From IMG/VR virus record IMGVR_UViG_3300032180_000001, positions 1 through 64,000 of that record: 64,000 bases of DNA; one strand, 5' to 3'. Position numbers and translations under genes: made by a program. How positions within the stretch are numbered: the stretch's first letter is position 1; each line of letters opens with the position of its first letter. The stretch is from a virus. Below the pieces are notes generated by a model that saw nothing but the letters and a program-made list of their open reading frames with translations, was not told the origin of the DNA and searched no databases. This document shows, one piece after another, positions 4,254 through 32,251 of this stretch.

Positions 4254-4436
4254 CTAGCTTACCCTGCCCTGCAGGGCTGACCACGGAACAACAACCAGGC
4301 GCGTGCCGGGAACCTGGTATGAATCTTCTGATTCCTCAAGCTGCGCGATCAGCGCGTCGAGCCGGGCGATTATCCGCTCCACGGTCTCATTCATCTGCTT
4401 CGTAATCTCCCGCCTATCGTCATCATCACTTGGCAC
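4254..4436 (-). CDS. small protein with C-terminal VVPW tag
   Basis: Ends ...TRLVVVPWSALQGRVS; overlaps polA stop. Confidence 0.6.
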   Translation of the reverse strand: MPSDDDDRREITKQMNETVERIIARLDALIAQLEESEDSYQVPGTRLVVVPWSALQGRVS

Positions 4437-7290
4437 TGCACTCGCCCCAGCTCATACCCGCAGTCATATCTGAAATTATAGGCACGTCCCGCCACATGAA
4501 GGTCATGGCTCGCTGTACCTCCCGCGCGACCTCAAGCGCATCACGCTTCAAGCAGCTTACCAAAATCTCGTCGTGGACCATCACCCGCAGCATCGGCAGG
4601 ATCTCCCGCGGCAGCCGGAGCAGCGCCTCGCCCATGATGTCCCGAGCCCCTCCCTGGCCGAGCAAAGCTGGGGCAACCGTGTACGCACGATCCGGATCAC
4701 ACATCATGCGCCTGCCGAACCCGTTATCCAGGATTTCCCCGGCCTTGCCGCGCGCCCTGATATCCTCCCGCCAGGCGATCAGCTGCGGGTAGTTGGCTTC
4801 CATTCCGGCGATGAAAGCATAAACCTTTTCCGGGTCCAGGCCATTGGCGATCATCCGCTTCGCGCCGAGCCCGTAATTCCAGCCGTGCGAGATGGCCTTG
4901 GTCGCCTGACGGCTGATGCCGATCTTGGCGGCGTTCTCCTTGTGCGCATCATTGGGCTTGCCATCCGGGCCGAAACCGAACAGCGCCATGTACGCGGGGT
5001 CCTGACAGTGCCCAGCGATGGCCCTCATATCAACCTGGGCCAAGTCAAAACTCATCAGGATATGACCCTCGTCGGGGAGAAAGATATCCCGCTCGTGATG
5101 CTTGCCGTCATGCTTGCCGAATACGGTCAGGCCTGGGTTAGTCACCGACCACCGGCCGGATGCCTGCCGGAAAGAATTAACCGGATGCACCCGCCCGTCC
5201 GGGCAGAGGCAGTCACTGGCAGTTCCGTAAACTGACCTGGTCTTGGTAACGATCTCCATCAGCTTCAGCGCCGCCTTGAGATCGCCGGGGCATTCCGGCC
5301 GAACCGCTATCTTATTCAGATCATCGGTGCCGATAGATAGCTTTCCCTTAGCCGTCAGCGGCGGATCGGATACCTGATAGCGCTCCCATATCCTGGCTAG
5401 CCATTCCCTCCCGGCATTTCCGCTTAGGGGGGAATCAACGGTTTCCTCTGATTCAGTTTTTTTCGACCCTCTGCCCCGCATGACTTTTCTCGTCAGCGGG
5501 AGCCCCCACCCTGCGTGCAGGAGATCGAGGGCCTCGCGCTTGCGATTCTCGCCTGCCTCCAGCCGTTCTGTCAAGAGCCTCGTGTCAACCCGGAAACCGT
5601 TGAGGCTCATCCGGCCGGCGATCGCGGCTAGCTGGTGCTCCCGCCGCAAATACGGGTCGGCGTCCAGGTAACCTCCGATGCGCCCGGCCACCGCGGCGGT
5701 CGCCCGCAGGTCACCTTCCAGGTAGCTCCGGTACTCCGGATCGTCGAGCGGGATCTTGTCCCAGCCGCCGTGCTTGCGCTTCAGCCGCATCGCCGAATCA
5801 CTATTATGCGTAACAATGCAGTGCTCAGTAACATACAGGGAGTCGACCGCATCCACGTAAAGACAGGTAACTTCCGCCTGTCCCTCTAGCTCAATGGAAT
5901 TAATTATCCGCTTTGGAATTTTATGACCATTTGGCTCCCAGCCGCTGCGAGTAAGAAATGGATTTATCGGAATATTAATAGTCAGCTTATAACTCGGCTG
6001 CCCCGTGCGCGTTTCTCCCCGATAAGTATACTTCGGTGCTTGCTTGATACTCTTGCGCGCCGTACCGCCAAATGATTCTACCAAAAAACGCACCTGATCG
6101 GTCAAATTTTCTGACGCCGAGGAGAATCTCGTATTCAATCCTCCACGGTAAACTCCATCCTGCGTCCGATACAACTCGCCATCGGTATCCATCAAACCTC
6201 GGAGCAGGTCAAGCCGCTGATTAGCGCTAGAGTAAAGATAGTTATCCGGGATGAACTTACCCTCTGCCCGCTTCCCCCAGAGGCCCATTTCTTTAAGGGA
6301 TTCCTTGATCGGATTAACGAAACGCCACCCGTTAGGCAAACTTCCTCGCTTTCCGTCAGCTCTGCTTATCCTGTATTCAGGCAGCCTTTTACCATACCTA
6401 TAGGAAGCAAGAACTAGGTTAGGAGGCAGACGCCGTTCAACCTCCGCAGGTACCAGCAAGTCACCGGGAGTAAATCTTACCGCCTGAGTTAGAGCACCAT
6501 CTCCCAAGAGAACGCCTAGAATATACGGATCGATCGGAAGTTTTCTGCGCACCATCTTCACGGGAGCGGATACAAGCGGAATAGCCCATCTAGGTTTTCT
6601 ATCACTACTTGCTGAAAGCAATGTCATCAATTCAAGAGTACTGATATCTCGGAACTTAACACCATGTTGTCCGTAGTACGGAGCGGCGGTCCACAAGTGA
6701 TCGCCGTCAGCCAAAATACTAGTCCGGTCATCAAAAGTCACACGATAAACAGAAAGCACCCCACGCCTATAGGTATTAAGAACCTGAACAGGTAGACCAT
6801 TACTTCCGATCACCATATCGCCAGGTACCAGATCCTCCACAGAAACGAAACCCTGCGGTGTAAGAATTCCTGTTCCATGGGGATGTCCCTTTCCCTCAAC
6901 GCCACAGCGTTCCGCCACGCTGGTCAGATCGTAGGAATCCTGAGTATGCGCGGTGTCCCGGGAACGGGGCGGCCACACCTGACGGGCAACCAGCTCGGTG
7001 TCGCAGGATTTCGCGGCCAGGAATTCATAATCTGCGCCATGATGCCAGGCGAGGGCCGGAAGATCAAAAGAACTGGAATTGTGCCCGGTAATCCGGTCAG
7101 CGGATTTCAGCTCGTCGATCAACTGCGAGACGGGAACGATGCGCGGCACTGCCGGGCTGCTGTCAGCGCCGTTCGGACCGAGGGCGCCTGCCAGCCGGAC
7201 GAAGCCCGTGTCGTCGTGCGAGACGTACCGGAACAGCTCGTCGGCACTCCCGGTCTCCAGGTCGAAGACGACCTCGCTACCGCGAGTCAT
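4426..7290 (-). CDS. polA: DNA polymerase family A (3'-5' exonuclease + polymerase) containing an intein
   Basis: ExoI VFDLET, ExoII GHNSSSFDL, ExoIII YLEGD; motif A DLAQVDMR, motif B RQATKAISHGWNYG, motif C VHDE. Confidence 0.95.
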   Translation of the reverse strand: MTRGSEVVFDLETGSADELFRYVSHDDTGFVRLAGALGPNGADSSPAVPRIVPVSQLIDELKSADRITGHNSSSFDLPALAWHHGADYEFLAAKSCDTELVARQVWPPRSRDTAHTQDSYDLTSVAERCGVEGKGHPHGTGILTPQGFVSVEDLVPGDMVIGSNGLPVQVLNTYRRGVLSVYRVTFDDRTSILADGDHLWTAAPYYGQHGVKFRDISTLELMTLLSASSDRKPRWAIPLVSAPVKMVRRKLPIDPYILGVLLGDGALTQAVRFTPGDLLVPAEVERRLPPNLVLASYRYGKRLPEYRISRADGKRGSLPNGWRFVNPIKESLKEMGLWGKRAEGKFIPDNYLYSSANQRLDLLRGLMDTDGELYRTQDGVYRGGLNTRFSSASENLTDQVRFLVESFGGTARKSIKQAPKYTYRGETRTGQPSYKLTINIPINPFLTRSGWEPNGHKIPKRIINSIELEGQAEVTCLYVDAVDSLYVTEHCIVTHNSDSAMRLKRKHGGWDKIPLDDPEYRSYLEGDLRATAAVAGRIGGYLDADPYLRREHQLAAIAGRMSLNGFRVDTRLLTERLEAGENRKREALDLLHAGWGLPLTRKVMRGRGSKKTESEETVDSPLSGNAGREWLARIWERYQVSDPPLTAKGKLSIGTDDLNKIAVRPECPGDLKAALKLMEIVTKTRSVYGTASDCLCPDGRVHPVNSFRQASGRWSVTNPGLTVFGKHDGKHHERDIFLPDEGHILMSFDLAQVDMRAIAGHCQDPAYMALFGFGPDGKPNDAHKENAAKIGISRQATKAISHGWNYGLGAKRMIANGLDPEKVYAFIAGMEANYPQLIAWREDIRARGKAGEILDNGFGRRMMCDPDRAYTVAPALLGQGGARDIMGEALLRLPREILPMLRVMVHDEILVSCLKRDALEVAREVQRAMTFMWRDVPIISDMTAGMSWGECSAK
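5803..6888 (-). mobile_element. intein (362 aa) with LAGLIDADG homing endonuclease, class-3 signature
   Basis: Starts GK|GHPHGTGILTP, block B ADGDHLW, LGVLLGDG and LRGLMDTDG, block F VTCLYV, ends VTHN|S; visibly more AT-rich than the exteins. Confidence 0.9.
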
Positions 7291-7349
7291 TATTCACTCA
7301 CCTCTCGCCAAAAACATACTTTCCGTAACCTGTCCACTGCTAACAGTGC

Positions 7350-7662
7350 GGGTGGGTTCAGCGGGTGGGTCAGTTTCCGAGCATGAAAGTTCTACTTCGC
7401 CGGCTGAGTCGGCTTTCCAGGTATTTTCTGCACCTCGGTGGGCGGGTGGGTTGCCAGTTCTAAAAGTCCGCGCACATGCATGCATGCATGCGCACGCGTG
7501 TCGCGCCCAGGCGCATGCACACACGCGCATGCGGACTTTGAGTATGTTGTAACCCACCCAACCCACCCACAGAGAGTAATAGCAGGTCAGGAATTTATTT
7601 CCGGGTGGGTTACCCTCCTGGAAACCCACCCTGTAACCCACCCAGGCTGATCTAACCCACCC
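7350..7662. repeat. intergenic repeat region with nine GGGTGGGT/ACCCACCC motifs and a (CATG)n alternating purine-pyrimidine tract; candidate replication origin
   Basis: Motifs near 7350, 7363, 7444, 7551, 7560, 7603, 7623, 7635, 7654; lies between primase-helicase and polA. Confidence 0.7.
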
Positions 7663-7672
7663 GCTCATCACA

Positions 7673-10234: not shown

Positions 10235-10385
10235 CCCACTTCCTGACTAGTTCTGCGGTGGCACGCAAAAAATTTCTGCAAATTTCTGCGCGCCTGGCCG
10301 CCAAACCTGATAATGCGGTAGCCCTGCGCTTCGATGGCGCGCTGCCTTTTACAGTCTTTTGCTCGATCGTTAATTTCTATCGCGT

Positions 10386-10589
10386 TCACGACGCCGCCTC
10401 AAGCTCTTCCGCTTCCTCGGCCTGCTCTCGCTCCGCCTCACCGCCAAGAGCCTGCTCCAGGAGCACGATGATCGTGGCGTTGACCGAGCGGCGGTCGGCG
10501 TCGGCACGTTCACGGAGCCGGTCACGCAGATCACGGGGCAGCCGCACCTGAGTATTGATGAGGTCTGCGGCGTAGGTTGAACGAGTCAT
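10386..10589 (-). CDS. Arc-like ribbon-helix-helix DNA-binding protein
   Basis: TQVRLPRDLRDRLRERADADRRSVNATIIVLLEQAL. Confidence 0.85.
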   Translation of the reverse strand: MTRSTYAADLINTQVRLPRDLRDRLRERADADRRSVNATIIVLLEQALGGEAEREQAEEAEELEAAS

Positions 10590-10638
10590 AGGTGGATCAG
10601 TCTAGTCCCGCCGTCCTCCTTGCGGAAGCGAAGTCTGA

Positions 10639-11419: not shown

Positions 11420-11428
11420 AGCCCTCGG

Positions 11429-12211
11429 TCATTTAGTTCCCTCCCGTCTCGCTCGGATCTCCCCCGTCGGCATGCCGGACAGCCGCAGCGCAGCATCCTC
11501 GGCGAACGGCTCGTGCAGCTCGATCCCGACGGAGCGCAGGCCCAGCGACCGGGCTGCCACGAGCGTACTACCCGACCCGCAGAACGGATCCAGGATCAGG
11601 CCTCCCGACGGGCATCCGTATTTTATGAGCGGAAGAATAAGCTGGACGGGCTTTTCCGTGCGGTGAATGGCGCCCCGCTGGTGCATGTTCGGAACCCGGA
11701 GCACCGACCGGGCCAGCCGCGTGCCGTCATCGATGTAACCGGAATCGCCGATCTTCCCGGTGTGCGCCGGCCCCTTCCGCGTCGCGATGCTCTTGTCTCC
11801 GGTGCTGGTCTGCGGCACCCGCGGCACCTCATGATGAATCGTGCTCCATGCCCCATGGTAAAAGTGGCCGATGATCTCATGCACCCGCTTGAACCGGTCG
11901 GCCGCGAAACCGGACCCGTTCTGCTTCTCCCAGATGATGTCCTGGCTGAATTTCCATCCTGCCCCAGTGAATTCTCCGCTGCGGGCCATGAACATGCGCG
12001 AACTGCCGAAGCACCACATCGAACGGCCCGCCGTCGCGGCTATTTCCGGCCAGCCCTCGGGCCAGGTATCCCAATCGAAAGAAACCTCTTTTCCGTAAGG
12101 CGGGTCGCAGATGAGGAGATCTGCCTTCAGTTCCAGCGCGGGAATGATATCGCGCATGTCACCGAGGTACAGCTGGGTGAGGGCGTCGTCGTAATAGGGG
12201 ATCATGCCCAC
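11429..12211 (-). CDS. DNA amino-methyltransferase (N6-A/N4-C, beta class)
   Basis: ICDPPY precedes HRTEKP...ILDPFCGSGST. Confidence 0.9.
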   Translation of the reverse strand: MGMIPYYDDALTQLYLGDMRDIIPALELKADLLICDPPYGKEVSFDWDTWPEGWPEIAATAGRSMWCFGSSRMFMARSGEFTGAGWKFSQDIIWEKQNGSGFAADRFKRVHEIIGHFYHGAWSTIHHEVPRVPQTSTGDKSIATRKGPAHTGKIGDSGYIDDGTRLARSVLRVPNMHQRGAIHRTEKPVQLILPLIKYGCPSGGLILDPFCGSGSTLVAARSLGLRSVGIELHEPFAEDAALRLSGMPTGEIRARREGTK

Positions 12212-12500
12212 CCCGTGTCTTTTCAGGTCGCCACGGTATCGCGACTAGCCAGTACCGTCCGGGGGTCTCATCGAGGGGGTGGGTGACGGTCCGGATCTGG
12301 AGATGCTGAAGGTACGAGAGGATCCAGCCATCGTTGTGCAGGGAGCGAGGATAGCCGTCGATGACATGCAGGACGGTCCCGGCCGAGTACCCGCGGAGGT
12401 CTTCCGGACGGCTCACGTACCGCCACTCCCGGTGGTTGTAGCCCATCCGCTGGCACCAGCGCTGCAGTAGCTCCCAGCTAGGGGCGGTGCCCAGGTTCAT
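12159..12500 (-). CDS. small protein with VPW-type tag
   Basis: MNLGTAPSW...RYWLVAIPWRP; TGATG coupling to upstream gene. Confidence 0.6.
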   Translation of the reverse strand: MNLGTAPSWELLQRWCQRMGYNHREWRYVSRPEDLRGYSAGTVLHVIDGYPRSLHNDGWILSYLQHLQIRTVTHPLDETPGRYWLVAIPWRPEKTRGGHDPLLRRRPHPAVPR

Positions 12501-12658
12501 CAGTCCTCCCTCGGCCGCCACGGCACCGCGACGAGCCGGATCCCGGGCAGGTCTGGCAGCATGAGCGTTCCGCAGTTGCAGATGATCAGGTTGATGCCCG
12601 TTCCGGTGCTTGCCTGGCTCCCGCAATCTCCGCAGTTCCACCACACTCTGTCGCTCAT
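12500..12658 (-). CDS. 52-aa zinc-ribbon protein with VPW tag (not in ORF track)
   Basis: MSDRVWWNCGDCG...ICNCG...IRLVAVPWRPRED*; overlapping start/stop at both ends. Confidence 0.65.
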   Translation of the reverse strand: MSDRVWWNCGDCGSQASTGTGINLIICNCGTLMLPDLPGIRLVAVPWRPRED

Positions 12659-12936
12659 GATCTCTCACCCCGTGCTCTCTGCGGGGCTGGCTGCCACGGC
12701 ACCACAACGAGCCGATGCCGACCCTCCCATGCTGACCGCACCTGCACCCGGATCTTTCCCATATAGGCGTCCCAGTCTCCGAAGCGCTCGGTATAGAACT
12801 CCAGTTCTGGTTCCGCGATGGGGATGAGGCCCTCGTTGTTTAGCTTGCGGGTCAATGCCTGCCGAAGAAAGTCCTCGCGACGCGCCCGGCTGGCGTAAAG
12901 CTTCTCGCTGAAGGTGGCCCGGACCTCGAACATCAT
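12655..12936 (-). CDS. small protein with VPW tag
   Basis: Ends ...HRLVVVPWQPAPQ... Confidence 0.65.
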   Translation of the reverse strand: MMFEVRATFSEKLYASRARREDFLRQALTRKLNNEGLIPIAEPELEFYTERFGDWDAYMGKIRVQVRSAWEGRHRLVVVPWQPAPQRARGERS

Positions 12937-13187
12937 CAGCCTTCACCCCGTGTTTCCTGCAGGATTGGCTGCCAGGGTACCACGATGAGCTTACATTTCC
13001 AGGCTGTCAGGTGCCGACTGCACAGCAGATAATAGGAATAATTGATGTCGTGGTGCAATTTCCAGCAGCGGCGAAAGCTTACTACGGAACAGTCATTGCA
13101 CCATGGGATAATTTTACAGTCGGGACAAAATTGAACTTCATATTTAAGGTTACCCTTCAGCATGTCAATGAAGTAAATCGTTTTCAT
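12936..13187 (-). CDS. small Cys-rich protein with VPW tag
   Basis: CPDC...CNDC...CKLIVVPWQP. Confidence 0.65.
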   Translation of the reverse strand: MKTIYFIDMLKGNLKYEVQFCPDCKIIPWCNDCSVVSFRRCWKLHHDINYSYYLLCSRHLTAWKCKLIVVPWQPILQETRGEG

Positions 13188-13432
13188 GATCCCTCACCCT
13201 GTGCTTTCGGCCGCCATGGCACCACGACAAGGGTAGGGGGCAGCCTGACGACGCTGCGAGCATCGAGTGCCGGATCCTCAAGCGCATTAGCCTTATATGA
13301 TGCATAGCATTTCTCACATAGCAGCTCCACGTGCCCTGACTGAGCGAACACCCACAGGTACCGGGCCGGAACTCGCTGCGGCTGTCTCTCTCCGGCTCGC
13401 CAGATTCTCGCGCAGCACATGCATCTCCTCAT
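13184..13432 (-). CDS. small zinc-finger protein with VPW tag
   Basis: CMCC...LCEKC...TLVVVPWRP. Confidence 0.65.
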   Translation of the reverse strand: MRRCMCCARIWRAGERQPQRVPARYLWVFAQSGHVELLCEKCYASYKANALEDPALDARSVVRLPPTLVVVPWRPKAQGEGS

Positions 13433-13779
13433 CAGTCCTCACCCCGTTCCTTTGATCGCCATGGCACGGCAACCAGCCGGTATTTCCTCGCGTTCAGTAG
13501 CACCTCGACGGGATCTTCCCCGCCCTCGATCCGGTCTGCCTCCTCTGGCGTAACCTCGATGCCGCCGATTACCAGCGTTGAGCTAATATTACTCCTGATA
13601 TTCCAGAGGCCCCATGTCGACCTCTTATCTATTTGAGTAGTGTAAACCAGCTGCGCCTCTTCCGGCGTTACGTCCAGGTCGTCGAGAGTAATAACAGGAT
13701 ACGTGAATGAATACGGCGGGATATCGTGATGGAAGTTCAGCGCCCAGCGGCGGGGGTAGCTGCGGCTACTGCGGCTCAT
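13432..13779 (-). CDS. VPW-tag protein, tandem paralog of 13776..14117
   Basis: SRSYPRRW...PVITLDDLDVTPEEA...KYRLVAVPW. Confidence 0.7.
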   Translation of the reverse strand: MSRSSRSYPRRWALNFHHDIPPYSFTYPVITLDDLDVTPEEAQLVYTTQIDKRSTWGLWNIRSNISSTLVIGGIEVTPEEADRIEGGEDPVEVLLNARKYRLVAVPWRSKERGED

Positions 13780-14117
13780 GCCTTTTCCTCCCCCGGCTGC
13801 CATGGCACGGCTTTCAGCCAGTATTTCTTCCCCGTCCCAAGCAGCACATCGACGGGATCTTCCCCGCCCTGGATACGGTTCACTTCCTCCTGGGTGACCT
13901 CGATGCCGCTCAGCCGGAAATACCGATGGGAGTAATTATAGCGAAGGTTCCCGCGGCGCTGGTACGTGATCAGCTGCGCTTCCTCCTGCGTCACGTCCAG
14001 GTCGTCGAGGGTGATGACAGGTGACTCCGCGAAGTGAGTGTACGAGGACCAGTGCAGCGAGGCCGGATCGGGGCGACGGGCGTTCAGCACCCAGTGGCGA
14101 GGATAACTGCGGCTCAC
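13776..14117 (-). CDS. VPW-tag protein, tandem paralog of 13432..13779
   Basis: SRSYPRHW...PVITLDDLDVTQEEA...KYWLKAVPWQP. Confidence 0.7.
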   Translation of the reverse strand: MSRSYPRHWVLNARRPDPASLHWSSYTHFAESPVITLDDLDVTQEEAQLITYQRRGNLRYNYSHRYFRLSGIEVTQEEVNRIQGGEDPVDVLLGTGKKYWLKAVPWQPGEEKA

Positions 14118-14766
14118 CGTCTTCCTTCCCGACGATTTCAGTAATCCGCCGGACAACCCGGACCGGTACCGCTGCCAGAGCTGCCAGAGCCTGAGCCTTC
14201 TCGAGCGTCAGCGTGCCATGGTCGCCGAGGCCGTGATACGCTCGGATGCCGGAAGTGACGGGGAACCAGCCGACATTGTCCTGCCAGAACTCCACGTCGT
14301 AGTCAGTCAGATGTGTCTCTGCCCCGAGGCTGTCGCCGTGCAGCATCATAATGACTTCCTGCCGGACCGTGTCGGCATCGGCGCCGAGCCGAACGAGAAC
14401 CTGAGTGGCTACGTTATCACCTTCGCGGATCAGCCCCAGCAGGAGGTGCTCGGTGCCGGTGTAGTTATGGCCGAGTTGCAGCGCTTCCCGCAGCGCCAGC
14501 TCCAGGACCTTCTTGGCCCGCAGCGTGTACGGGATGTGCCCGTGCAAGGTTTGCTGCCCCCGGCCGACCGTTTCCTCGATCTGCTGGCGGGTCGCTTCCA
14601 GGCTGATCCCGAGCCCGGCGAGCACCTGCCCGGCAATGCCGTCACCCTCGCGGATCAGCCCCAGCAGGATGTGCTCAGTGCCGATGTAGTTATGATTGAA
14701 ATTTTTTGCTTCTTCCTGCGCTAGGATGACAACCTGCCGCGCCCGATCAGTAAATCGCTCGAACAT
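13936..14766 (-). CDS. stand-alone ClpC N-terminal (double Clp-N repeat) domain fused to a phage domain
   Basis: MFERFTDRARQVVILAQEEA...YIGTEHILLG...KKVLELALREA...YTGTEHLLLG; no AAA+ module; last ~60 codons overlap the next gene. Confidence 0.9.
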   Translation of the reverse strand: MFERFTDRARQVVILAQEEAKNFNHNYIGTEHILLGLIREGDGIAGQVLAGLGISLEATRQQIEETVGRGQQTLHGHIPYTLRAKKVLELALREALQLGHNYTGTEHLLLGLIREGDNVATQVLVRLGADADTVRQEVIMMLHGDSLGAETHLTDYDVEFWQDNVGWFPVTSGIRAYHGLGDHGTLTLEKAQALAALAAVPVRVVRRITEIVGKEDGEPQLSSPLGAERPSPRSGLAALVLVHSLRGVTCHHPRRPGRDAGGSAADHVPAPREPSL

Positions 14767-14843
14767 CGCCTCCCCTTCCCCTTCTCCTAGTTTGCCAGTA
14801 TACTAGAGCTAGGTTTTCGCTCTGCCAACATTGGGGATCTGCT

Positions 14844-15717: not shown

Positions 15718-16011
15718 CTATAACGGGCTCCACGGCACGACAGTGCAGTAGATCCTGCCGAGCAGAACGTCCGCGGGGCGGGCACGCCAGAGGATATGCC
15801 GGGCCTCTTCCGGCGTAATTTCCAGGTTCCTGATGTACTTCATGAAGTTGACATCGATCCAGTCTTTGGCTGCCCGGCCCTGCGCTCGGATCTGCTCTGC
15901 CTCCCCAACGGTAACGGTTACGCTGAGTAGCCAAGCGTTTCGGTCATTGTAGTAGAGGAGGCTGCCGTCTGGGAATCTCCACCACGTTTCCTTTTCGGGA
16001 GTACTCGTCAT
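15718..16011 (-). CDS. VPW-tag protein
   Basis: MTSTPEK...LEITPEEA...VLLGRIYCTVVPWSPL. Confidence 0.65.
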   Translation of the reverse strand: MTSTPEKETWWRFPDGSLLYYNDRNAWLLSVTVTVGEAEQIRAQGRAAKDWIDVNFMKYIRNLEITPEEARHILWRARPADVLLGRIYCTVVPWSPL

Positions 16012-16361
16012 CCTTTTCCCTTTCCTTCCGGCTGCCACGGCACGACTGCCAGCCAGTATCGCTTCCCGTCGAGCAGCACGCTATGCGGGTTAGCACCATC
16101 GCGGATGAGAGCCGCTTCGTCCGGGGTAATGCGAAGGCTGACTGCCCATTGACGGGGAGCAATACGGGCTGGACAATAGATGAAGGCACCACGCTCGGCT
16201 TCATAACGAAAAGCCAGCTCTTGCGTTGTATTGAACTCAACGGTGCAATCGGTCATCGTGAAAGATTTTCGTCCTTCGAGCGCTTGGTATGAAGTAAGAG
16301 TTGGCGCGACACCGGAGAATTCTAGTGTGATCTCAACGGGGTAACGTCGGCACAGTCTCAC
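16008..16361 (-). CDS. VPW-tag protein
   Basis: ...LRITPDEA...VLLDGKRYWLAVVPWQP; GTGA coupling. Confidence 0.65.
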   Translation of the reverse strand: MRLCRRYPVEITLEFSGVAPTLTSYQALEGRKSFTMTDCTVEFNTTQELAFRYEAERGAFIYCPARIAPRQWAVSLRITPDEAALIRDGANPHSVLLDGKRYWLAVVPWQPEGKGKG

Positions 16362-16474
16362 AGGATCCCCGCCAGAATCAGGGCTCCAAGTGTAATTGCG
16401 GCCAGGAACATGAGCGCGGCGATGAAGACGAGCCCGTACAGCAGGCACCCCAGGCCCTCGGCAAAGCCATCCAT
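16358..16474 (-). CDS. 38-aa single-TM membrane peptide
   Basis: MDGFAEGLGCLLYGLVFIAALMFLAAITLGALILAGIL* (manual translation). Confidence 0.5.
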   Translation of the reverse strand: MDGFAEGLGCLLYGLVFIAALMFLAAITLGALILAGIL

Positions 16475-16959
16475 GGTAACCGCGCCTTTCTTGAGAGTGG
16501 ATCCGGCAGCCCGGCATACCTGCATGCGGCAAAAAGCGCTACCCGAGCGCTGTCTCTGGCGTCGATGCTCTTGTTCGTCATCCCGTACAATTTAGTCGCT
16601 ACGAGCCTATTGTTGTCTGCCCAGGTCTTGACCTCGCTTGCGGTGTGCCATTTCCACTCAACAGGCAGCGCATTCAGGTCGGCGATCACCTTCCGGGTGG
16701 CAGCAGCCTGCGGTCCGGTGGCTCCGGCGCCCCGTCCGGGGATGAATTTTTCTCCCGCCGCGATGACGGCTGCCCCCGGGTCTGCCTGCCCACACGCCTC
16801 GACGAGGTACTGCACCAGCCCGAAGACCGCCCCATGGTTACAGCCATACACCGACCGCTCAGTAATAGTCAATTGCCCCGTGCTTTCTGCGGGGTCCAGC
16901 CGTAGTATAGTAACGCCCGTGAAAACACCTGGATCTACGCCAAGTACATAAAGGGTCAT
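16378..16959 (-). CDS. RuvC-like Holliday junction resolvase
   Basis: VLGVDPG, AGEKF, DARDSARVA acidic motifs; C-terminus overlaps next gene. Confidence 0.7.
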   Translation of the reverse strand: MTLYVLGVDPGVFTGVTILRLDPAESTGQLTITERSVYGCNHGAVFGLVQYLVEACGQADPGAAVIAAGEKFIPGRGAGATGPQAAATRKVIADLNALPVEWKWHTASEVKTWADNNRLVATKLYGMTNKSIDARDSARVALFAACRYAGLPDPLSRKARLPWMALPRAWGACCTGSSSSPRSCSWPQLHLEP

Positions 16960-17204
16960 TGCTCTCCCTCTGGTTTCCATGGTACGATAACAAGCCGAAT
17001 CGGGCGCTGCGCTGTTACTTCCCAGTATTCGGTACCGGGGAATTTCTCGCAGGGCAGGCCAAGCTCGTCGCAGGTTATCACGTGCGGGCAGTAGCAGGAG
17101 CATTTCACGTGGCTGCCTCGACGAACGTGCCTTGTGCTCCCTGTCGGGTCACTATCCGTATCCGCATCCCGTGCAGCTGGCGTCAGCACACCCGCAGTCC
17201 TCAT
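16956..17204 (-). CDS. small Cys-rich protein with VPW tag
   Basis: Ends ...IRLVIVPWKPEGEQ. Confidence 0.55.
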   Translation of the reverse strand: MRTAGVLTPAARDADTDSDPTGSTRHVRRGSHVKCSCYCPHVITCDELGLPCEKFPGTEYWEVTAQRPIRLVIVPWKPEGEQ

Positions 17205-20919: not shown

Positions 20920-20926
20920 AGTGGTG

Positions 20927-21012
20927 AAGAGTGATCGGGCGTAATCCGTTGAAGCCCAGGGATTGGGAGCATCATCCGCTGGTACGCTTTGGTTTTCATT
21001 TTCGTCAGCCAT
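20927..21012 (-). pseudogene. orphan 5' fragment homologous to 20013..20246
   Basis: MADENENQSVPADDAPNPWASTDYARSL, then runs antisense into the HNH. Confidence 0.65.
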
Positions 21013-21256
21013 TATTACGTCCTTCAGCTAGCCTTTTTATCCTTATCCTAGTTACCAGCAGGGTGCCTCCGACGCGTAGCAGCTCGCTGTCGCTCCAGAG
21101 TGTTATCGGCAGCCGGAACCCGATTCGCTGACAGGTTCGGTTGCAGCCGGGGCAGCTGCCGGCGGCCCACATTTTACACGGGCGGTCGTATGTCTCATCG
21201 GGATCGAAGACGGGTTCGCTGCCGCCGTTCCAGAGAACTATCTCAAGCCGAGTCAT
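21005..21256 (-). CDS. small Cys-rich protein starting RLEIVLW
   Basis: MTRLEIVLWNGG...CKMW...CPGCNRTC. Confidence 0.5.
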   Translation of the reverse strand: MTRLEIVLWNGGSEPVFDPDETYDRPCKMWAAGSCPGCNRTCQRIGFRLPITLWSDSELLRVGGTLLVTRIRIKRLAEGRNNG

Positions 21257-24764: not shown

Positions 24765-24779
24765 GCTTCTTCAAACCCC

Positions 24780-25885: not shown

Positions 25886-26601
25886 AGTACTCCACCCAGC
25901 AACTCGCGTACAAGATCTTCACGGACGATTCGCTCTAGCCTACTGCCAGGCTGACTGTAGCGAGCGAGCATCTCGACAGCCCATAGAATCTTGTCCCCCA
26001 CCCGCTGCCCCTGCGGCTGGCTCGTACTCCACAGCTCCAGGTTCTCCGGACGGTTGTCGTCCCTGACACCGTTGATATGATGAACATTTTCATCAGTAAA
26101 AAGCTCTCGGCCAAGCATCTGCTCCATGATGATTCGGTGTTCTTGCACTACAACGCATTGGCCGTCCGACAAATACCAGCGCCAGGATGCGTAACGCGTA
26201 GATGCACTAATTTGACGCACAGGGCAGCCACACTGAGATTCCTTTCCTCTAAAAGGGCTCTTGGGTATATCTATAACCTCAGCCTCATGCCCACAGCGTG
26301 TGTCTTTCGCTAGATAATACCAGCCTCCGGCGTTCCTGCGCAAAGCCTTTATTATAATAAATACACCTACCTTTTCTCCATCAGACAGGCGAGGAGGACC
26401 ATTTTTTGATTTAAGCACATCGTTGCAGGTTATACAGCGCCTGGACCCCCCTCTTTTTATAGTGCCTAGCTGTACCCAGCGTTCTTTACCGCAGTCACAA
26501 CAGGCTGCCAGAACGCATCTGTCATGACGCTTAGGCAACTGCACCATCAAAATTTTAATACCCAGAATTTCTTCCGGTACGTACAGGCTGGGTCTGCTCA
26601 C
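25882..26601 (-). CDS. HNH homing endonuclease
   Basis: EHRIIMEQMLGREL...VHHINGVRDDNRPENLELW. Confidence 0.9.
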   Translation of the reverse strand: MSRPSLYVPEEILGIKILMVQLPKRHDRCVLAACCDCGKERWVQLGTIKRGGSRRCITCNDVLKSKNGPPRLSDGEKVGVFIIIKALRRNAGGWYYLAKDTRCGHEAEVIDIPKSPFRGKESQCGCPVRQISASTRYASWRWYLSDGQCVVVQEHRIIMEQMLGRELFTDENVHHINGVRDDNRPENLELWSTSQPQGQRVGDKILWAVEMLARYSQPGSRLERIVREDLVRELLGGVL

Positions 26602-26620
26602 TGTTACTATTCCTAATTGG

Positions 26621-28381
26621 TCACCCTCCCAGTAGTTCTTTCACTACCCGGGGGTCACGCACGAGTTCTGAAAGTTTTTTCGCCTTCGATTTTAGCGCAG
26701 TTCTGACGTGACTGTCAACAGTACCCTTAGCCACTATGTCTATAATCTCAACACAGGTGTTTTTCTGTCCCAGGCGATGAAGACGATCTTCAATCTGGAT
26801 TGATTCGTCGAGTTTCCATGAGCGCTGGAGGACGACTGCCGTTCCCGCTGCGGTGAGCGTGATGCCCAGGCCGCCCGCGCCTGCTGTGGCAAGGATGAGA
26901 TCCAGTTCCCCGGCCTGAAACGCGGCGATGTCATCCTTCCGGTTCTTCGCGCTTGCTGTTCCGGTGATGTACCCGCATCGGTAGCCAGCCTTCTCGCACG
27001 CGACTCCGGCGATGTCGATGAGTTGCCTGCTGTTAGCGAAAACAGCCGTCGGAGCGCAGGATCCCGGCCTCTTCCCGGGTCGCTCGGCGAGGATGCCCAG
27101 CAGGGCGTCTACTTTCCAGGATGGGCTCTTGAGCGTCACGTCGTACTTCTTGGTCTCCTGGCCTAGTTCGTTCAGCTCGACGGAAACAGCTACGTCGAAC
27201 GCGGACGAGGCGAGCTGCGAGAGCCGGGTCAGCTGGGCGAGAACACTCATGACGGGCAGTTCCCCTCCATCAGGAAGCTGAGCTAGCATCTCCTCAGCGA
27301 GAGTATCGTATGCCTTTCGCCATTCCTTCGGTAGTTCAACTCGGCGAACTGAATAGACTTTAGGTGGCAACTGGTCAAGCACGTCTGCTTTTGAGACGCG
27401 GCGCATCTGCCCTTGCGTGATAATGCGGAATTCCGGCTCAGCGAGTGGGTTCAGCCCTTCGATCACTTCTCCATAATCACTGGCCGTAGTAAGAAGATAA
27501 CGTTTTACGAATCTCTCACGGGACGGATACGACTCCGGTTCCATGGCGGCAAGCACGGGGAAGATGTCTCCAGAATCGCGGGTGATCGGTGTTCCAGTGA
27601 GCGCGATGAAATTTCTCGCATGCCGTGATATGCTGCGCAAGGCTATCGAGCGGCCACTCTGAACGTTTTTCAGAGCATGGGCCTCATCCGTAACAACGGT
27701 AACAGGCTTCATTTTCCTCGCCAGTACGTCTGAATCAATCCGGGCAGTGGCGTAAGTTGTCAGCAGGATGTCAGCGTCTAGTTTTTCCGCTCGCCTCGGA
27801 CCGCCGTACATCACCGGTTCCGGCCATTCAGGTGCCCACATGGCTATCTCCCGGCCGAGAGCGTCCGCCACGTCCCAGCTGGGGGACACGATGAGTGCCG
27901 GGAAGATTCCGTGCCCCAGGAGCTGCCTGATCTTCAGCCCGAGGATCGTCGAGCAGCCCTTTCCGGTTCCGGGCTCATCTAGCAAAAGAAACTTTCCAGA
28001 CATCCCAATCATTCGTGCGGCGTCAAGTTGGTAAGGGCGTGGGGTCAGTCCTTCAGGCCATGATGGCGTTGCGCTCGACGGCGTATGTCGCCAGCTGAAC
28101 TCCTCGACGATCCACTTCTGCAATTCTGCCTGCGGCATCCATTGACCAGTCAGCTCCGAGCCATTAAACGTCATCGCCAATTGCGTAATCGTCGCCCACG
28201 TGCACGGCCCTCGGAGCGCACCGGGCGGGTCTGTTTTCTTAAATGCTGCTGTACAATGACGAAGAGCTTTCGCCGCTGCCGCCACCTCGTGATCATCGCC
28301 AGTGGCAATCAGGATGATGTGCTGGCCGTCTCTCGTTCGTTCGGCTACGATTCCCGCTGTCATATGATCACCGTCGCCCAT
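26621..28381 (-). CDS. SNF2-family (SF2) helicase
   Basis: LLLDEPGTGK, VTDEAH, ALTGTP, RRVSK, AGGLGITL, QIEDRLHRLGQ. Confidence 0.9.
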   Translation of the reverse strand: MGDGDHMTAGIVAERTRDGQHIILIATGDDHEVAAAAKALRHCTAAFKKTDPPGALRGPCTWATITQLAMTFNGSELTGQWMPQAELQKWIVEEFSWRHTPSSATPSWPEGLTPRPYQLDAARMIGMSGKFLLLDEPGTGKGCSTILGLKIRQLLGHGIFPALIVSPSWDVADALGREIAMWAPEWPEPVMYGGPRRAEKLDADILLTTYATARIDSDVLARKMKPVTVVTDEAHALKNVQSGRSIALRSISRHARNFIALTGTPITRDSGDIFPVLAAMEPESYPSRERFVKRYLLTTASDYGEVIEGLNPLAEPEFRIITQGQMRRVSKADVLDQLPPKVYSVRRVELPKEWRKAYDTLAEEMLAQLPDGGELPVMSVLAQLTRLSQLASSAFDVAVSVELNELGQETKKYDVTLKSPSWKVDALLGILAERPGKRPGSCAPTAVFANSRQLIDIAGVACEKAGYRCGYITGTASAKNRKDDIAAFQAGELDLILATAGAGGLGITLTAAGTAVVLQRSWKLDESIQIEDRLHRLGQKNTCVEIIDIVAKGTVDSHVRTALKSKAKKLSELVRDPRVVKELLGG

Positions 28382-28620
28382 TCGTGCTCGATCGGGTACA
28401 TGGCGCCAAAACCGTCGACGGGGCCTGCCTCCAGAATCGGTTCCGACAGCGCTAGACACATCAAGTTCGCAACATCAGTCATTGCTCGGAAGACCCATCT
28501 CGATACGATGGCATGGTCGCGGCCCGAATAGACGGTCATGTTCATCTCGCCATTGTCAAGGAGCCGCTGCCGGTCCTCGGGGTACATTGCGATGCGCATC
28601 AGATCATCACCGTCGCCCAC
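28360..28620 (-). CDS. hypothetical protein ending AMYPIEHEWATV
   Basis: ORF track; both ends lie in copies of a repeated junction. Confidence 0.55.
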   Translation of the reverse strand: MGDGDDLMRIAMYPEDRQRLLDNGEMNMTVYSGRDHAIVSRWVFRAMTDVANLMCLALSEPILEAGPVDGFGAMYPIEHEWATVII

Positions 28621-29290
28621 TCATACTCATGCTCGATCGGGTACATGGCGCAGACCGGGAATTCCGAGTTTTTCCGGAAGTCATTTTTAATCCACTTCCT
28701 CGTTAGCCAGGTAAATCTGGGGGAAATTTAGTAGCGCATAATCCCCCCAGGCCTTTCGTGCAGCAGCGTCGTAGGCTTGCGCTGCATCTTCTTCAAGGAT
28801 GAACCGGCCAAGATTATATCGCTTCCAGTTAATTTTGATATCTGCACGCCATTTTTTATTAACTTTGTCCCAAGAAACGCCTTTGTACGAGGAGGTAAAT
28901 CCAAGCGTGGCTCGCTGATTTGCTTGATTCTGCTTCTGCCCAGCTGGTCGCAGATTACATCTCCGATTATCCAGTCCGTTATGATTTTGATGATCGATAC
29001 CTGTACGGATATTCAAGATCAGAACGTGCATGGAAATGGTGGTATTAACGCCGTTGGCATTTCGGATAATTGTTATTGCATAGGGACCGGCTATCCTTCC
29101 GGAAGCTAGTTCTCGCTCTCTCACATACCACTTATATTGACTGACCAGCGGGTAGTCCTCGTCATCAATCAGGGCGACGCGCCCGGCGGCCTTCTTGCCA
29201 TGCAGGGGTATTTCTTTCATATAGTCACCGTAGCCCACGCGTGCTCGATCGGGTACATGGCGCAGATCGGGAATTCGGAATCTTTCCTAA
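28362..29290 (-). repeat. three diverged copies (near 28362, 28601, 29221) of a dual-frame junction module
   Basis: tcaccgt.gccca...tgctcgatcgggtacatggcgc; reads AMYPIEH.WATV* in one frame and (M/V)G(D/Y)GD.M in another. Confidence 0.85.
28687..29238 (-). CDS. HNH-AP2 homing endonuclease
   Basis: IDHQNHNGLDNRRCNLR; SSYKGVSW...KWRADI...LGRF..EEDAAQAYD. Confidence 0.9.
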   Translation of the reverse strand: MGYGDYMKEIPLHGKKAAGRVALIDDEDYPLVSQYKWYVRERELASGRIAGPYAITIIRNANGVNTTISMHVLILNIRTGIDHQNHNGLDNRRCNLRPAGQKQNQANQRATLGFTSSYKGVSWDKVNKKWRADIKINWKRYNLGRFILEEDAAQAYDAAARKAWGDYALLNFPQIYLANEEVD

Positions 29291-29474
29291 TGTGCCACCA
29301 GATTCTGCATCGCGGGCACCAGCCGCCAGGCTGCCAGGTTCCGTACGGGTGGATGCGGACGGTTCCCCCGGCATCGAGTGCGAGAAAGTTCAGGCAGTCA
29401 GGGCAGATGCCTTCCGACAGTGCGGCAACATCCTGCTTGTGCCTTGGGCGGTAAACAGCAGCGGGGGTAATCAT
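29217..29474 (-). CDS. zinc-finger hypothetical protein ending AMYPIEHAWATV
   Basis: CPDC...CPRC. Confidence 0.5.
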   Translation of the reverse strand: MITPAAVYRPRHKQDVAALSEGICPDCLNFLALDAGGTVRIHPYGTWQPGGWCPRCRIWWHIRKDSEFPICAMYPIEHAWATVTI

Positions 29475-29647
29475 TCTGCGGCCTCTCCCGGGCATGCATC
29501 CGCGTGCACCGCGATCTGGTCGAGAAGCTGCTGCACGCTGCTGCCGGGATACCAGCCCAGGGTCAGCTTGCAGGCAGGGCACCGGGCACCAGGCGGCAGC
29601 GTGACCAGCCACTCGTTCAGGCCACGGGGGCGCTTACCGATCATCTC

Positions 29648-30004
29648 TCACCTGAATTCGTAGTCCGCGAAAAAACAGCCCTGGTCGCGCCATTGCTGCT
29701 TTGACAGGTTGGGGTGATAGTGACGGAACCGTGCGTCATCACGCCGGATCAGCTTATCGTCACCGTCAACCATCGGCAGCCAGCTTTCCACCAGTTCCAG
29801 AAAATCATCAATGTCCAGTTCGTGCGAGTACTCGTCCTGAATGAACGCGAAGGTGTCGAGCTGCCGCAGCCATGTCTGGATTCCGATGATGCCCTCGGCC
29901 CGGTTACCCCGGAACAGGAATTCCCAGCCGCCCGCCGACTGGCCGAGCAGCGTCCGCCGGTCGTAGACTTCGTCGGTGTTATATCCGTAATAAACGGTGC
30001 TCAT
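29648..30004 (-). CDS. hypothetical phage protein
   Basis: LGQSAGGWEFLF...IQDEY...YEFR. Confidence 0.6.
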   Translation of the reverse strand: MSTVYYGYNTDEVYDRRTLLGQSAGGWEFLFRGNRAEGIIGIQTWLRQLDTFAFIQDEYSHELDIDDFLELVESWLPMVDGDDKLIRRDDARFRHYHPNLSKQQWRDQGCFFADYEFR

Positions 30005-30200
30005 TTTTTCCTCCCTTAGGATTCCATAGTACGATCTCAAACGGCGTGAACGACACGCGTACCACTTGGTTCATCCAGGCGCCGCACGGGCAGTGAACTA
30101 CTTGCGCGTATCCATACCACCGGTGCCCGCAGTTCCGGCAGGCCCAGGCTGGGTTCATCAGCTCCTCCCACAGCGCTCTTCTTGTCATGCGGGCCTCCAC
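29979..30200 (-). CDS. zinc-ribbon protein with IVLW tag variant
   Basis: CRNCG...CPCG...FEIVLWNP. Confidence 0.55.
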   Translation of the reverse strand: MEARMTRRALWEELMNPAWACRNCGHRWYGYAQVVHCPCGAWMNQVVRVSFTPFEIVLWNPKGGKNEHRLLRI

Positions 30201-30415
30201 AACACGATCTTCAGCCGGGTTTCCGGAACCTCCCGGATCTCATGCATCCGCGTCCCGCAGCCGGGGCAGCTGATCGCCCGCACCCGGGAGAATGACTCGT
30301 ACTGCCAATTGCAGCCGGGGCATTCCCAGGTCTTGCAGAGGTGCCGAGTCAATTGCTCCAGGCAGGTAAACCTTCTCGCGCATCCTATGCATTCATAGGG
30401 CAGAACGGTATTCAC
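30185..30415 (-). CDS. zinc-finger protein with IVLW tag variant
   Basis: CIGC...HLC...CPGC...CPGCG...TRLKIVLWRPA. Confidence 0.6.
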   Translation of the reverse strand: MNTVLPYECIGCARRFTCLEQLTRHLCKTWECPGCNWQYESFSRVRAISCPGCGTRMHEIREVPETRLKIVLWRPA

Positions 30416-30780
30416 GCCGGCACCAGGTTTCCGTCGCGCAGCCAGTAGTGGCCCTCCGGGCAGGTGCCGTTCCTCCAGCCGGGGCAGCCGAGTGATGGGG
30501 TGAGCGTCGGCGCCTCTGCCGTGCCGGTGTTTACCCAGCGGGGGTCGTCCCAGCCGGACACTGGTACCTCGCCGATCTTCCCGTAGTGCCAGCGGGCGCA
30601 GCCGGGGCAGAGCCAGGAGAATCCGCCGTCGTGCCAGCAAAGCAGCGCGGTTCCCCGCCAGATAAGCTCGGCCTGCTCGAAGTTGTCGCGGGAGACGTGC
30701 GGGTCGGTGGCGTGAAAGCGCTTGTTCCGGGCGGCCATGTCCGCGAGCGACAGCACCTGAACCCTCATGCGGGTCTCCAC
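30412..30780 (-). CDS. Cys/His protein resembling DUF6527
   Basis: CPGC...RWVNTGTAEAPTLTPSLGC...GHYWLRDG. Confidence 0.5.
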   Translation of the reverse strand: METRMRVQVLSLADMAARNKRFHATDPHVSRDNFEQAELIWRGTALLCWHDGGFSWLCPGCARWHYGKIGEVPVSGWDDPRWVNTGTAEAPTLTPSLGCPGWRNGTCPEGHYWLRDGNLVPA

Positions 30781-31091
30781 GGCACCACGACCAGCCGGTA
30801 CGGGCTCAGGAAGATCTTGTACGGGTCACCGCTCTCGGCAACCGCTTTAGCCTGCTCTTCCGTGATGTCTAGGATAACGGTCACGGTGTTGTTCGGGTGT
30901 CTCTCCACTTCGGTAACGAAATCTTGCTGATGCAGGAACCATGCTTCTTCCGGGGTCACGCATAGCTTCAGCGACCAGGTTGAATAGCCGGGAATCGACG
31001 CCACCGCTTGGCCCAGATAACTGACGTTGATCCGGTCGGAGGAGAAGTTCAGCACCCACTCCCGCGGTCTCCGGCCGCGCAAGCGCGCCAT
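30765..31091 (-). CDS. VPW-tag protein
   Basis: LDITEEQA...SGDPYKIFLSPYRLVVVPWRPA. Confidence 0.65.
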   Translation of the reverse strand: MARLRGRRPREWVLNFSSDRINVSYLGQAVASIPGYSTWSLKLCVTPEEAWFLHQQDFVTEVERHPNNTVTVILDITEEQAKAVAESGDPYKIFLSPYRLVVVPWRPA

Positions 31092-31239
31092 CAGTCGGGC
31101 GCCCGGAACATACCCTGGTCGCGCATCACCGCGATGGACTCCTCGACGGAACCTTCGTCCAGGCCCTCATCCCGGAGCAGGCTGCGCGTCTCGGCGACCA
31201 GGATCTCGTCATCTTCGGGCGTTCCGCATAGTTCGCACA

Positions 31240-31419
31240 TCAGCTATCCTCCTCGACGGAACTATTATCAATCAGGGTCTTATCATCCTCGGGCGCCTGC
31301 TGCTCTTCTCGGTGAGCCTGCTCGTACGCCTCGATGATCCTGCGCCGGGCCGTGGTGTACTTTTCTCCCGTTTCCAGCATCCGCTGACGGGCTGCCTTCT
31401 TGAGCCGGTTGTTTGTCAT
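31240..31419 (-). CDS. small basic/acidic hypothetical protein
   Basis: MTNNRLKKAARQRMLETGEKYTTARR... (manual translation). Confidence 0.5.
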   Translation of the reverse strand: MTNNRLKKAARQRMLETGEKYTTARRRIIEAYEQAHREEQQAPEDDKTLIDNSSVEEDS

Positions 31420-31428
31420 TGTTACTCC

Positions 31429-31626
31429 TTAGAGACGAGCGAGATGGCTGAAGAACCATTCGAGACGCTGCTCTAGTGCCTGAAGACGATCTTTCAGTGC
31501 CTCGTTTTCCTGCTGAAGCTCCAGGATCGCATGGGGGATGTTCTCCGCGATGACTACCTCCCGACGCGCTCGCTCATCCGGTGGTATCCAGGGCGGGTCG
31601 GGAACGGCACGCAGTTCGTAACTCAT
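31429..31626 (-). CDS. coiled-coil hypothetical protein
   Basis: ORF track. Confidence 0.5.
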   Translation of the reverse strand: MSYELRAVPDPPWIPPDERARREVVIAENIPHAILELQQENEALKDRLQALEQRLEWFFSHLARL

Positions 31627-31955
31627 GTTTCCTTCTCCTTTTTCTGCGGTGTCCAGGGCACGACCTTCAGCTGGTACCGCGGGAACGAGTCGCCGATCAG
31701 GGTCATGTCGTAAGTATCACCGGCCTGGTTGTATTCGCCGAGCTGGTAGGTAACCGTCGCGTTGACGCCGGTAAAGGTAATGGCGACCGGGCCGTCGGGC
31801 CTGTTCAGTTCTAGCGCGACGAAGGGTCCCTGCCGCCCGAGTATCTGACTAAGCCACAGGCTGCGGAACAGCTCGCCGCTTATTCTCGTTTCTGGATCGG
31901 CACGCGTGATGAAGATCTTGTCGTTGAATCTTCGGAACTCGCAGAAGCCTGTCAT
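31623..31955 (-). CDS. VPW-tag protein, tandem paralog of 31952..32251
   Basis: FITRADPET...ITFTGVNATVTY...FPRYQLKVVPWTP. Confidence 0.7.
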   Translation of the reverse strand: MTGFCEFRRFNDKIFITRADPETRISGELFRSLWLSQILGRQGPFVALELNRPDGPVAITFTGVNATVTYQLGEYNQAGDTYDMTLIGDSFPRYQLKVVPWTPQKKEKET

Positions 31956-32251
31956 GCTGGCCTCCACGGCACGATCTCTAGCCGGTACCGCGGGAACGGG
32001 TCACCGAGGAGGATCATCTTGAAAGTGTCACTGGCCAGGTCATATTCGCCGACTCGGTAGGTGACTGTCTGGTTCACGCCTGCGAAAGTGATCGTCCAGT
32101 CTTGCGGGAATCCGTCTAGGACTACCTTAACGGCCGGATGCGGGTTATCCCGGAAGCTCCGCAGCAGGTCGAGGGTGATCGTCGTTTCCGGATCGGCACG
32201 GGTGATGAAAACCTGGCCGTTGCGTTTTTCAAGTACGATGTCGCCTGTCAT
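31952..32251 (-). CDS. VPW-tag protein, tandem paralog of 31623..31955
   Basis: FITRADPET...ITFAGVNQTVTY...FPRYRLEIVPWRPA. Confidence 0.7.
   Translation of the reverse strand: MTGDIVLEKRNGQVFITRADPETTITLDLLRSFRDNPHPAVKVVLDGFPQDWTITFAGVNQTVTYRVGEYDLASDTFKMILLGDPFPRYRLEIVPWRPA

Follow-up and report, generated by a model that had tools for sequence, protein, structure and literature searches.

Why should some twenty small proteins of one virus, most of them with little else in common, end in nearly the same few amino acids? The question is raised by IMG/VR record IMGVR_UViG_3300032180_000001, of which the first 64,000 nucleotides (64 kb, here "the window") were analyzed; the whole record, of 184,980 bases, was also scanned, and all coordinates are window-based. 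An initial annotation of the window, made by reading the sequence, reported a C-terminal L-x-V-V-P-W-x-P peptide ("the tag") on at least 16 small open reading frames (ORFs) between positions 4254 and 32251. A six-frame scan of the window found the peptide at all 16 of these ORF ends.

The consensus is [RK]-Y-[RW]-L-V-[VI]-V-P-W-x-P, with an invariant Trp, two near-invariant Pro, and conserved hydrophobic residues on both faces of a strand (L at -5, V or I at -3, V at -2, W at 0). Some copies depart from the initial spelling of the motif: Pro is absent at +2 from ORF 4254 (RLVVVPWSA) and replaced there by Ser in ORF 13432; C-T replaces L-x in ORF 15718; and the two variants at 29979 and 30185 have Leu instead of Pro before the Trp. 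A relaxed motif, [LIVFC]x[VIAT][VIT][PLV]Wx[PS], has 21 matches in a six-frame translation of the whole record, and RLVVVPWSA at 4283 brings the total to 22 copies; 20 second-order Markov shuffles of the sequence gave a mean of 1.35 matches (range 0–4). Twenty of the 21 matches, and the copy at 4283, are on the minus strand. All copies lie 4–24 codons (12–72 nt) ahead of a stop codon, in ORFs with good coding scores, and none is internal. About 7% of the predicted proteins of this phage are tagged.

The bearers within the window are listed here by coordinates, strand, and type. "TPEEA" is a name given here to an unnamed protein family defined by its sequence profile, and L040 and L042 are metagenomic contigs discussed below.

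4254..4436, minus strand: small ORF of 60 aa with a helical body; tag RLVVVPWSA at 4275–4298
12159..12497, minus strand: ORF of 112 aa; tag YWLVAIPWRP at 12225–12248; tagged homologue at L042:1020-1334
12500..12658, minus strand: zinc-ribbon-like ORF of 52 aa; tag IRLVAVPWRP at 12512–12535
12655..12936, minus strand: ORF of 93 aa; tag HRLVVVPWQP at 12688–12711
12936..13187, minus strand: Cys-rich ORF of 83 aa; tag KLIVVPWQP at 12966–12989
13184..13432, minus strand: Cys-rich ORF of 82 aa; tag TLVVVPWRP at 13208–13231
13432..13779, minus strand: TPEEA-family ORF of 115 aa; tag YRLVAVPWRS at 13453–13476
13776..14117, minus strand: TPEEA-family ORF of 113 aa, with a likely GTG start; tag YWLKAVPWQP at 13794–13817; its 5' part overlaps the 3' end of the Clp_N ORF
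15718..16011, minus strand: TPEEA-family ORF of 97 aa; tag IYCTVVPWSP at 15724–15747
16008..16256, minus strand: TPEEA-family ORF of 82 aa; tag YWLAVVPWQP at 16029–16052
16956..17204, minus strand: Cys-rich ORF of 82 aa; tag IRLVIVPWKP at 16971–16994; tagged orthologue at L040:8495-8653
29979..30188, minus strand: zinc-ribbon-like ORF of 69 aa; variant tag FEIVLWNP at 30018–30041
30185..30415, minus strand: zinc-ribbon-like ORF of 76 aa; variant tag RLKIVLWRP at 30191–30214, whose TGG-AGG is also the ribosome-binding site of the next gene
30765..31091, minus strand: TPEEA-family ORF of 108 aa; tag YRLVVVPWRP at 30771–30794
31623..31955, minus strand: beta-rich ORF of 110 aa, paralogue of 31952; tag YQLKVVPWTP at 31647–31670
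31952..32251, minus strand: beta-rich ORF of 99 aa; tag YRLEIVPWRP at 31958–31981

Six further copies lie beyond the window, at 65786, 65959, 66135, 66308, 66544, and 75555, the last on the plus strand. Five small ORFs at 65.7–66.6 kb have the C-terminal sequence …PYR[LI]VIV[PLV]WQPS, and the plus-strand ORF (75.2–75.6 kb) ends KLTITPWEPKKP. The exact string L-V-V-V-P-W-x-P occurs three times in the window and four times in the whole record. A scan of 2.9 million IMG/VR contigs for it returned 31 stretches, each with a single copy or one local repeat; none is in a comparable cluster of gene ends, and they look like chance. The condition named beforehand as refuting, an equal frequency at internal positions or in unrelated GC-rich sequence, was not borne out: no copy is internal, and unrelated GC-rich viral contigs lack the motif.

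Two partial look-alikes were seen. M-T-R-L-E-I-V-L-W-N-G-G, at window positions 21221–21247, is at the N-terminus of ORF 21005-21256 and lacks the Pro at +2; it is the sole tag-like sequence not at a C-terminus. Outside the window, the small minus-strand ORF 167238-167495 has P-R-L-V-V-V-P-D-V-I-L about 20 residues before its end, that is, the common strand followed by the kind of continuation (Asp for Trp) found in a sister lineage described below. A second, different gene end is also shared: ORFs 28360-28620 and 29217-29474 both finish A-M-Y-P-I-E-H-x-W-A-T-V-x-I, so shared C-termini in this genome are not confined to the VPW tag.

At what level is the tag selected? In an alignment of its codons, first and second positions carry 1–2 bits of information and third positions 0.1–0.7 bits, and the same codon is used for the same residue in two copies at a frequency of 0.40, vs. 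0.32 expected from genome codon usage. These figures agree with the earlier argument, from synonymous codon differences, that selection is at the peptide level. Conservation regardless of codon position, as expected of a nucleotide-level repeat or junction module, was not found. Because first and second codon positions are conserved and third positions nearly free, the peptide is the selected object: purifying selection acts on it, and not on a DNA site or an RNA motif.

What follows the tag is a different matter. Conservation stops at W-x-P. The codons beyond it contain a Shine-Dalgarno sequence (GGAGG-like) and the ATGA at which the next gene overlaps, and the residues there would be a by-product of that gene's ribosome-binding site and start codon. 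At four junctions the tag itself contributes, its TGG-AGG or TGG-AGC (Trp-Arg or Trp-Ser) being the GGAG core of the Shine-Dalgarno sequence. The start of the next gene overlaps the stop of the tagged ORF, and in two cases (12233 and 30026) precedes it. In ORF 12159 the tag is 24 codons ahead of the stop, a long tail explained by the downstream methylase gene, which starts within it.

All-against-all BLAST of the 22 bodies, trimmed of the tag, gives about 11 sequence groups. The initial description of them as mostly unrelated is therefore right for many, including eight singletons, one of which (the 60-aa protein at 4254) reads as one predicted helix plus the tag, and too broad for others: five (13432, 13776, 15718, 16008, and 30765) are TPEEA paralogues, seven form a loose group of Cys-rich, zinc-ribbon-like bodies linked solely by short CxxC matches, and two (31623 and 31952) are a pair with 52% identity. 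The TPEEA architecture consists of two beta-strand/T-x-E-E-A-helix units, then G-x-D-P-x-x-V-L-L, then a Y-R-L-x-V-V-P strand; the 17 other bodies do not match the profile.

No named family has emerged for either tag or bearers, in agreement with the initial annotation. Ten tagged proteins compared with Pfam gave no match above the curated cut-offs, and PHROGs gave none; ORF 12159-12497 likewise had no match. A profile of the tag found nothing among PDB sequences, a 40-residue tag profile matched only this phage and L042, and a homologue search with 31623 and 31952 returned the pair itself alone. The predicted structure of the TPEEA protein had no Foldseek match in the PDB at E<=0.001, nothing convincing in a wide VIA-align search (best Z 4.6), and no usable match in the ESM Atlas. 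A literature search for VVPW, VPWRP, and similar strings, and for shared C-terminal motifs of phage early proteins, found no relevant paper.

Relatives were found at the protein level, by way of the TPEEA family. A search of 1.84 billion protein representatives with the TPEEA profile yielded 42 of them; two giant proteins among the results (P0012 and P0036) were dismissed as repeat proteins (MBG, Big_2). The nearer relatives (P0006–P0019) have the C-terminal sequence …Y-R-L-V-V-V-P-W-[TRQ]-P, and on their contigs the tag is also found on adjacent, non-homologous genes. On the 3-kb contig L042 (assembly GCA_040384345.1), four of eight genes are tagged: two TPEEA genes, a homologue of window ORF 12159-12497, and one coding for a helical protein. 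L041 (1.1 kb) has three consecutive tagged genes, and two tags are present on L040 (20 kb from a contig of 117 kb), one on the orthologue of ORF 16956-17204. A scan of related phages had been proposed as a check, and the tag recurs on these three contigs. In six orthologue pairs compared, tags are by and large slightly better conserved than bodies (40–90% vs. 31–65%), with the body slightly better kept in one of the six; V-P-W-x-P is kept in every pair. It can be stated firmly that the tag is common to a small clade of uncultured actinobacteriophages.

Broader searches added nothing to this clade. GenBank phages have no DNA or protein match to the tagged region; two protein-based scans of IMG/VR gave no confirmed relative, and the matches that could be read looked like chance; species genomes gave 18 pattern matches, with no recognisable relative by tblastn; JGI metagenome contigs gave 52, again with no recognisable relative, and a DNA-pattern scan of them gave only chance matches among those listed.

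The farther TPEEA relatives (P0020–P0041) indicate where the tag may have come from. They have the same body and the same Y-R-L-x-[AV]-V-P strand, followed by D-P-L-x-G-G or similar (…GYRLxAVPDPL). In the sister lineage represented by contigs L164–L166, TPEEA paralogues end VVPDPLL, VVPEVL, and the like, and a zinc-ribbon protein (L164:3268-3465) ends YRLRIMPDPLL. Since the TPEEA family bears the strand in both phage lineages, the strand is older than the W-x-P ending. The latter is lineage-specific, and the module appears to have spread to many unrelated genes in this phage's lineage. The sister-lineage V-P-D-P-L-L-R-R may resemble the FtsZ C-terminal peptide.

A neighbour of the TPEEA genes has a similar ending, and is set down here as a separate observation:

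16378..16959, minus strand: RuvC-like protein with an N-terminal D-P-G-x-x-T-G, ending GLPDPLSRK

All related contigs (L040, L042, and L164–L166) have this conserved protein encoded immediately upstream of TPEEA paralogues, and its P-D-P-L resembles the sister-lineage V-V-P-D-P-L-L. In this phage its ORF extends 42 codons past the P-D-P-L motif, into the next gene.

What might a conserved peptide on so many small proteins do? The reading we favor, tentatively and at a little short of an even chance, is that it serves as a portable module, for docking or akin to a degron, with one putative common partner as its reader. The module would span some 10–20 residues, with a basic or aromatic residue, a hydrophobic beta-strand, and the fixed Pro-Trp-x-Pro turn. 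It would have originated as the last strand of the TPEEA family, and later been transferred, in this lineage, to many other small genes in the early and replication region. Each bearer would bind the common partner by addition of this strand into a hydrophobic groove, a mode of insertion that would suit the invariant Trp, the two near-invariant Pro, and the hydrophobic residues on both strand faces. Varied small effectors would in this way be brought to the partner, which they may inhibit, or marked for timed removal. No ClpP, AAA+ ATPase, or sliding clamp is encoded in the record, so any hub of these kinds would be a host protein; because unfoldase, protease, and clamp are all lacking, the partner is most likely host-encoded, candidates being the N-domain of an AAA+ protease (ClpC1 or ClpX), the sliding clamp, or a chaperone.

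Structural considerations bear on whether the tag is free to dock. An AlphaFold 2 (AF2) model of the TPEEA protein at 13432, built from 33 sequences, has a mean predicted local distance difference test score (pLDDT) of 85.6; residues 96–115, which hold the tag, are modeled as coil (pLDDT 71–76) and are not buried. The strand of the 4254 protein cannot be a core strand, because its body is a single predicted helix.

Several points weigh against a common docking module. Both the partner and the binding are hypothetical. The tag is rare, being known from this phage and a handful of metagenome contigs, with only two copies in the 20 kb of L040. Five of the 22 bearers are paralogues with the ancestral strand and seven more belong to the loose zinc-ribbon group, so the number of independent acquisitions is below 22. 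An AF2 model of the 31623 protein (pLDDT 64.7, from a two-sequence alignment) places QLKVVP in a strand that follows another strand, and a hydrophobic stretch with a Pro/Gly-rich turn lies 8–14 residues upstream of most tags. The tag may therefore belong to a hairpin at the C-terminus of each fold, and not be a handle that is free to bind.

These last two features also favor the main rival explanation, self-association, in which the strand and PWxP turn would form an edge strand or hairpin for dimers or mixed oligomers, with no separate hub. Conserved hydrophobic residues on both faces of the strand would serve such an interface well. The 31623 model is, however, of low confidence, and in the better TPEEA model the tail is coil; the constancy of the Trp and the near-constancy of the two Pro on unrelated bodies suit one fixed reader better than loosely paired strands. 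We consider self-association unlikely, although it is the alternative to be taken most seriously.

A more specific proposal comes from a gene in the middle of the largest tag cluster, which the initial annotation had offered as a candidate hub:

13936..14766, minus strand: Clp_N protein, a Clp_N domain without the ATPase part

Its residues 1–150 are about 75% identical to the N-domain of Mycobacterium tuberculosis ClpC1, and because of this identity the gene looks like a recent capture from an actinobacterial host. The host itself is, by sequence criteria, an actinobacterium, given this resemblance, the Actinomycetota affiliation of the nearest metagenomic homologues, and the near-absence of TTA codons: TTA has a 0.00 share of Leu codons in predicted genes of >=100 aa, which fits a Streptomyces-like, TTA-avoiding host. 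Cyclic peptides rich in Trp, Val, and Leu, such as cyclomarin, ecumicin, and rufomycin, bind in a hydrophobic groove of the ClpC1 N-domain. ClpC2, a homologue of this domain that stands alone, is reported to act as a sponge for cyclomarin (PMC10030653).

From these elements a degron-and-decoy scheme can be assembled: the host ClpC1 N-domain would read the tag, early proteins would be degraded on schedule, and the phage Clp_N protein would compete for them and set the timing. The closeness of the phage domain to ClpC1, the place of its gene amid the tagged ones, the known preferences of the groove, and the ClpC2 precedent all speak for it. Binding is argued here from gene proximity, which is weak by itself, and no Clp_N gene was seen in the readable, short parts of the related contigs; we judge the scheme improbable. 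A ClpC N-domain as the hub is likewise a long shot, a lead drawn from that proximity and from the taste of the ClpC1 groove for Trp/Val/Leu-rich peptides. A complex prediction for Clp_N residues 1–150 with a tagged TPEEA protein returned "no answer" (score 0.00), and counts neither way. Clp_N homologues on two long contigs (P0045 and P0111), considered as possible phage relatives, were rejected as bacterial ClpC2-like genes.

The boldest synthesis, as a whole very improbable, would have the tag as a transferable address label by which about twenty small effectors connect to a single host machine, the most attractive choice being the N-domain of the essential ClpC1 unfoldase, with the captured phage N-domain as timing decoy and the VPDPL ending of the sister lineage reflecting co-evolution with a different host pocket.

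The end of the Clp_N ORF is itself odd. Its last ~60 residues are rich in Arg, Pro, Gly, and Ser, and look like out-of-frame translation. The tagged gene 13776-14117 has an apparent GTG start, preceded by GGAAGGAAAA, some 180 nt before the Clp_N ORF ends and in a different frame. This could be an unusually long overlap, a read-through of Clp_N past its true end, or a frame change.

Two readings that dispense with a docking partner are unlikely. In the first, the tag would be an element acting at the level of nucleic acid or translation: a recombination junction module, a translational-coupling signal, or a nascent-chain pause site. Its position always 12–72 nt ahead of a stop, with the start of the next gene overlapping or preceding that stop, is what such an element might require, as are the four Shine-Dalgarno sequences formed by TGG-AGG or TGG-AGC, and AMYPIEHxWATVxI as a second gene end shared by two genes. 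The nearly free third codon positions, next to conserved first and second ones, exclude selection on a DNA or RNA site, however, and the distance from tag to next start varies threefold or more; as to pausing, the tag is not known to resemble any arrest motif. We regard this reading as highly improbable. In the second, hardly credible, the P-W-x-P with its unvarying Trp, found close to the C-terminus in so many small proteins, would be a recognition sequence for Trp- or Pro-directed modification or cleavage, as in precursors of ribosomally synthesized and post-translationally modified peptides (RiPPs) or the ComX pheromone, a role ill-suited to folded domains of 50–125 aa, which are not leader peptides, and to a phage with no radical-SAM gene in the 185-kb record (the longer 222.7-kb contig mentioned below was outside that search) and no plausible maturase among the neighbors scanned against Pfam (replication, nucleotide metabolism, and HNH endonucleases).

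The genes around the tagged ORFs belong, by Pfam scans, to replication and nucleotide metabolism. In addition to the RuvC-like and Clp_N proteins, they include PolA with an intein, a primase-like DUF5906 protein, an SNF2 helicase, ThyX, an N6/N4 methylase, a DUF3310 protein, and several HNH/AP2 endonucleases. The polA gene (4426-7290) has an intein with LAGLIDADG and Hint matches; on related contigs, fused primase-PolA genes of 1400–1540 aa are found in place of the intein-bearing form. A 222,744-bp ENA contig (sample ERZ27257219) carries the same phage and runs at least 10 kb beyond the start of the IMG/VR record, with further small phage-like genes including HNH, NlpC/P60, and DUF1707. Because of this extension the phage genome is probably larger than the record, and jumbo-sized.

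Most small early phage genes lack an assigned function. That about twenty of them share a tail kept by selection points to one common contact point, and turns twenty separate unknowns into one question, that of what binds the tail. If the reader is ClpC1, ClpX, or the actinobacterial sliding clamp, the peptide would be a natural ligand of a validated antibiotic target, and could readily be built into tools for targeted degradation or recruitment. In addition, the tag illustrates a route by which unrelated genes can acquire a structural strand from one family and turn it into a label specific to their lineage.

Among known systems, the clamp-binding motifs (QL[SD]LF type, and the C-terminal tails of T4) are similar in being short hydrophobic end peptides on unrelated proteins encoded among replication genes, read by one hub through a hydrophobic groove, as is proposed here for the tag. 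The clamp consensus itself (Q-L-[SD]-L-F or Q-x-x-[LM]-x-F) is not present: only two of 22 copies have Gln before the Leu, the Leu-aromatic spacing is 5 rather than 3, the Pro-Trp-x-Pro is invariant, and the bearers are tiny proteins of no known function instead of DNA enzymes. The XB peptide of SspB, L-R-V-V-K, a beta-strand partner of the ClpX N-domain, is like the tag a basic and hydrophobic C-terminal strand, and the setting is also reminiscent of ssrA/SspB in that a gene for a ClpC1-type N-domain adjoins the tagged genes. The ssrA and SspB tails are at the extreme C-terminus, with a free carboxylate, however, whereas a variable 3–24 residues follow the Trp of the tag, and they lack the Pro-Trp-x-Pro turn. 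The acidic tails of T7 gp2.5 and gp4 and the C-terminal tip of single-stranded DNA-binding protein (SSB) provide examples of one short C-terminal peptide docking several proteins on a common partner; these tails are acidic and finish in an aromatic residue that bears the free carboxyl group, whereas the tag is hydrophobic and basic, and not terminal. RiPP-type precursors have a maturase, such as a radical-SAM/SPASM enzyme, encoded alongside; none was found among the scanned neighbors of the tagged genes in the 185-kb record. Shared terminal docking peptides are thus a known principle, represented by clamp motifs, ssrA/SspB tails, and T7 acidic tails; new here are the VPWxP motif, its spread from the last strand of one family, and its position next to a captured ClpC1 N-domain.

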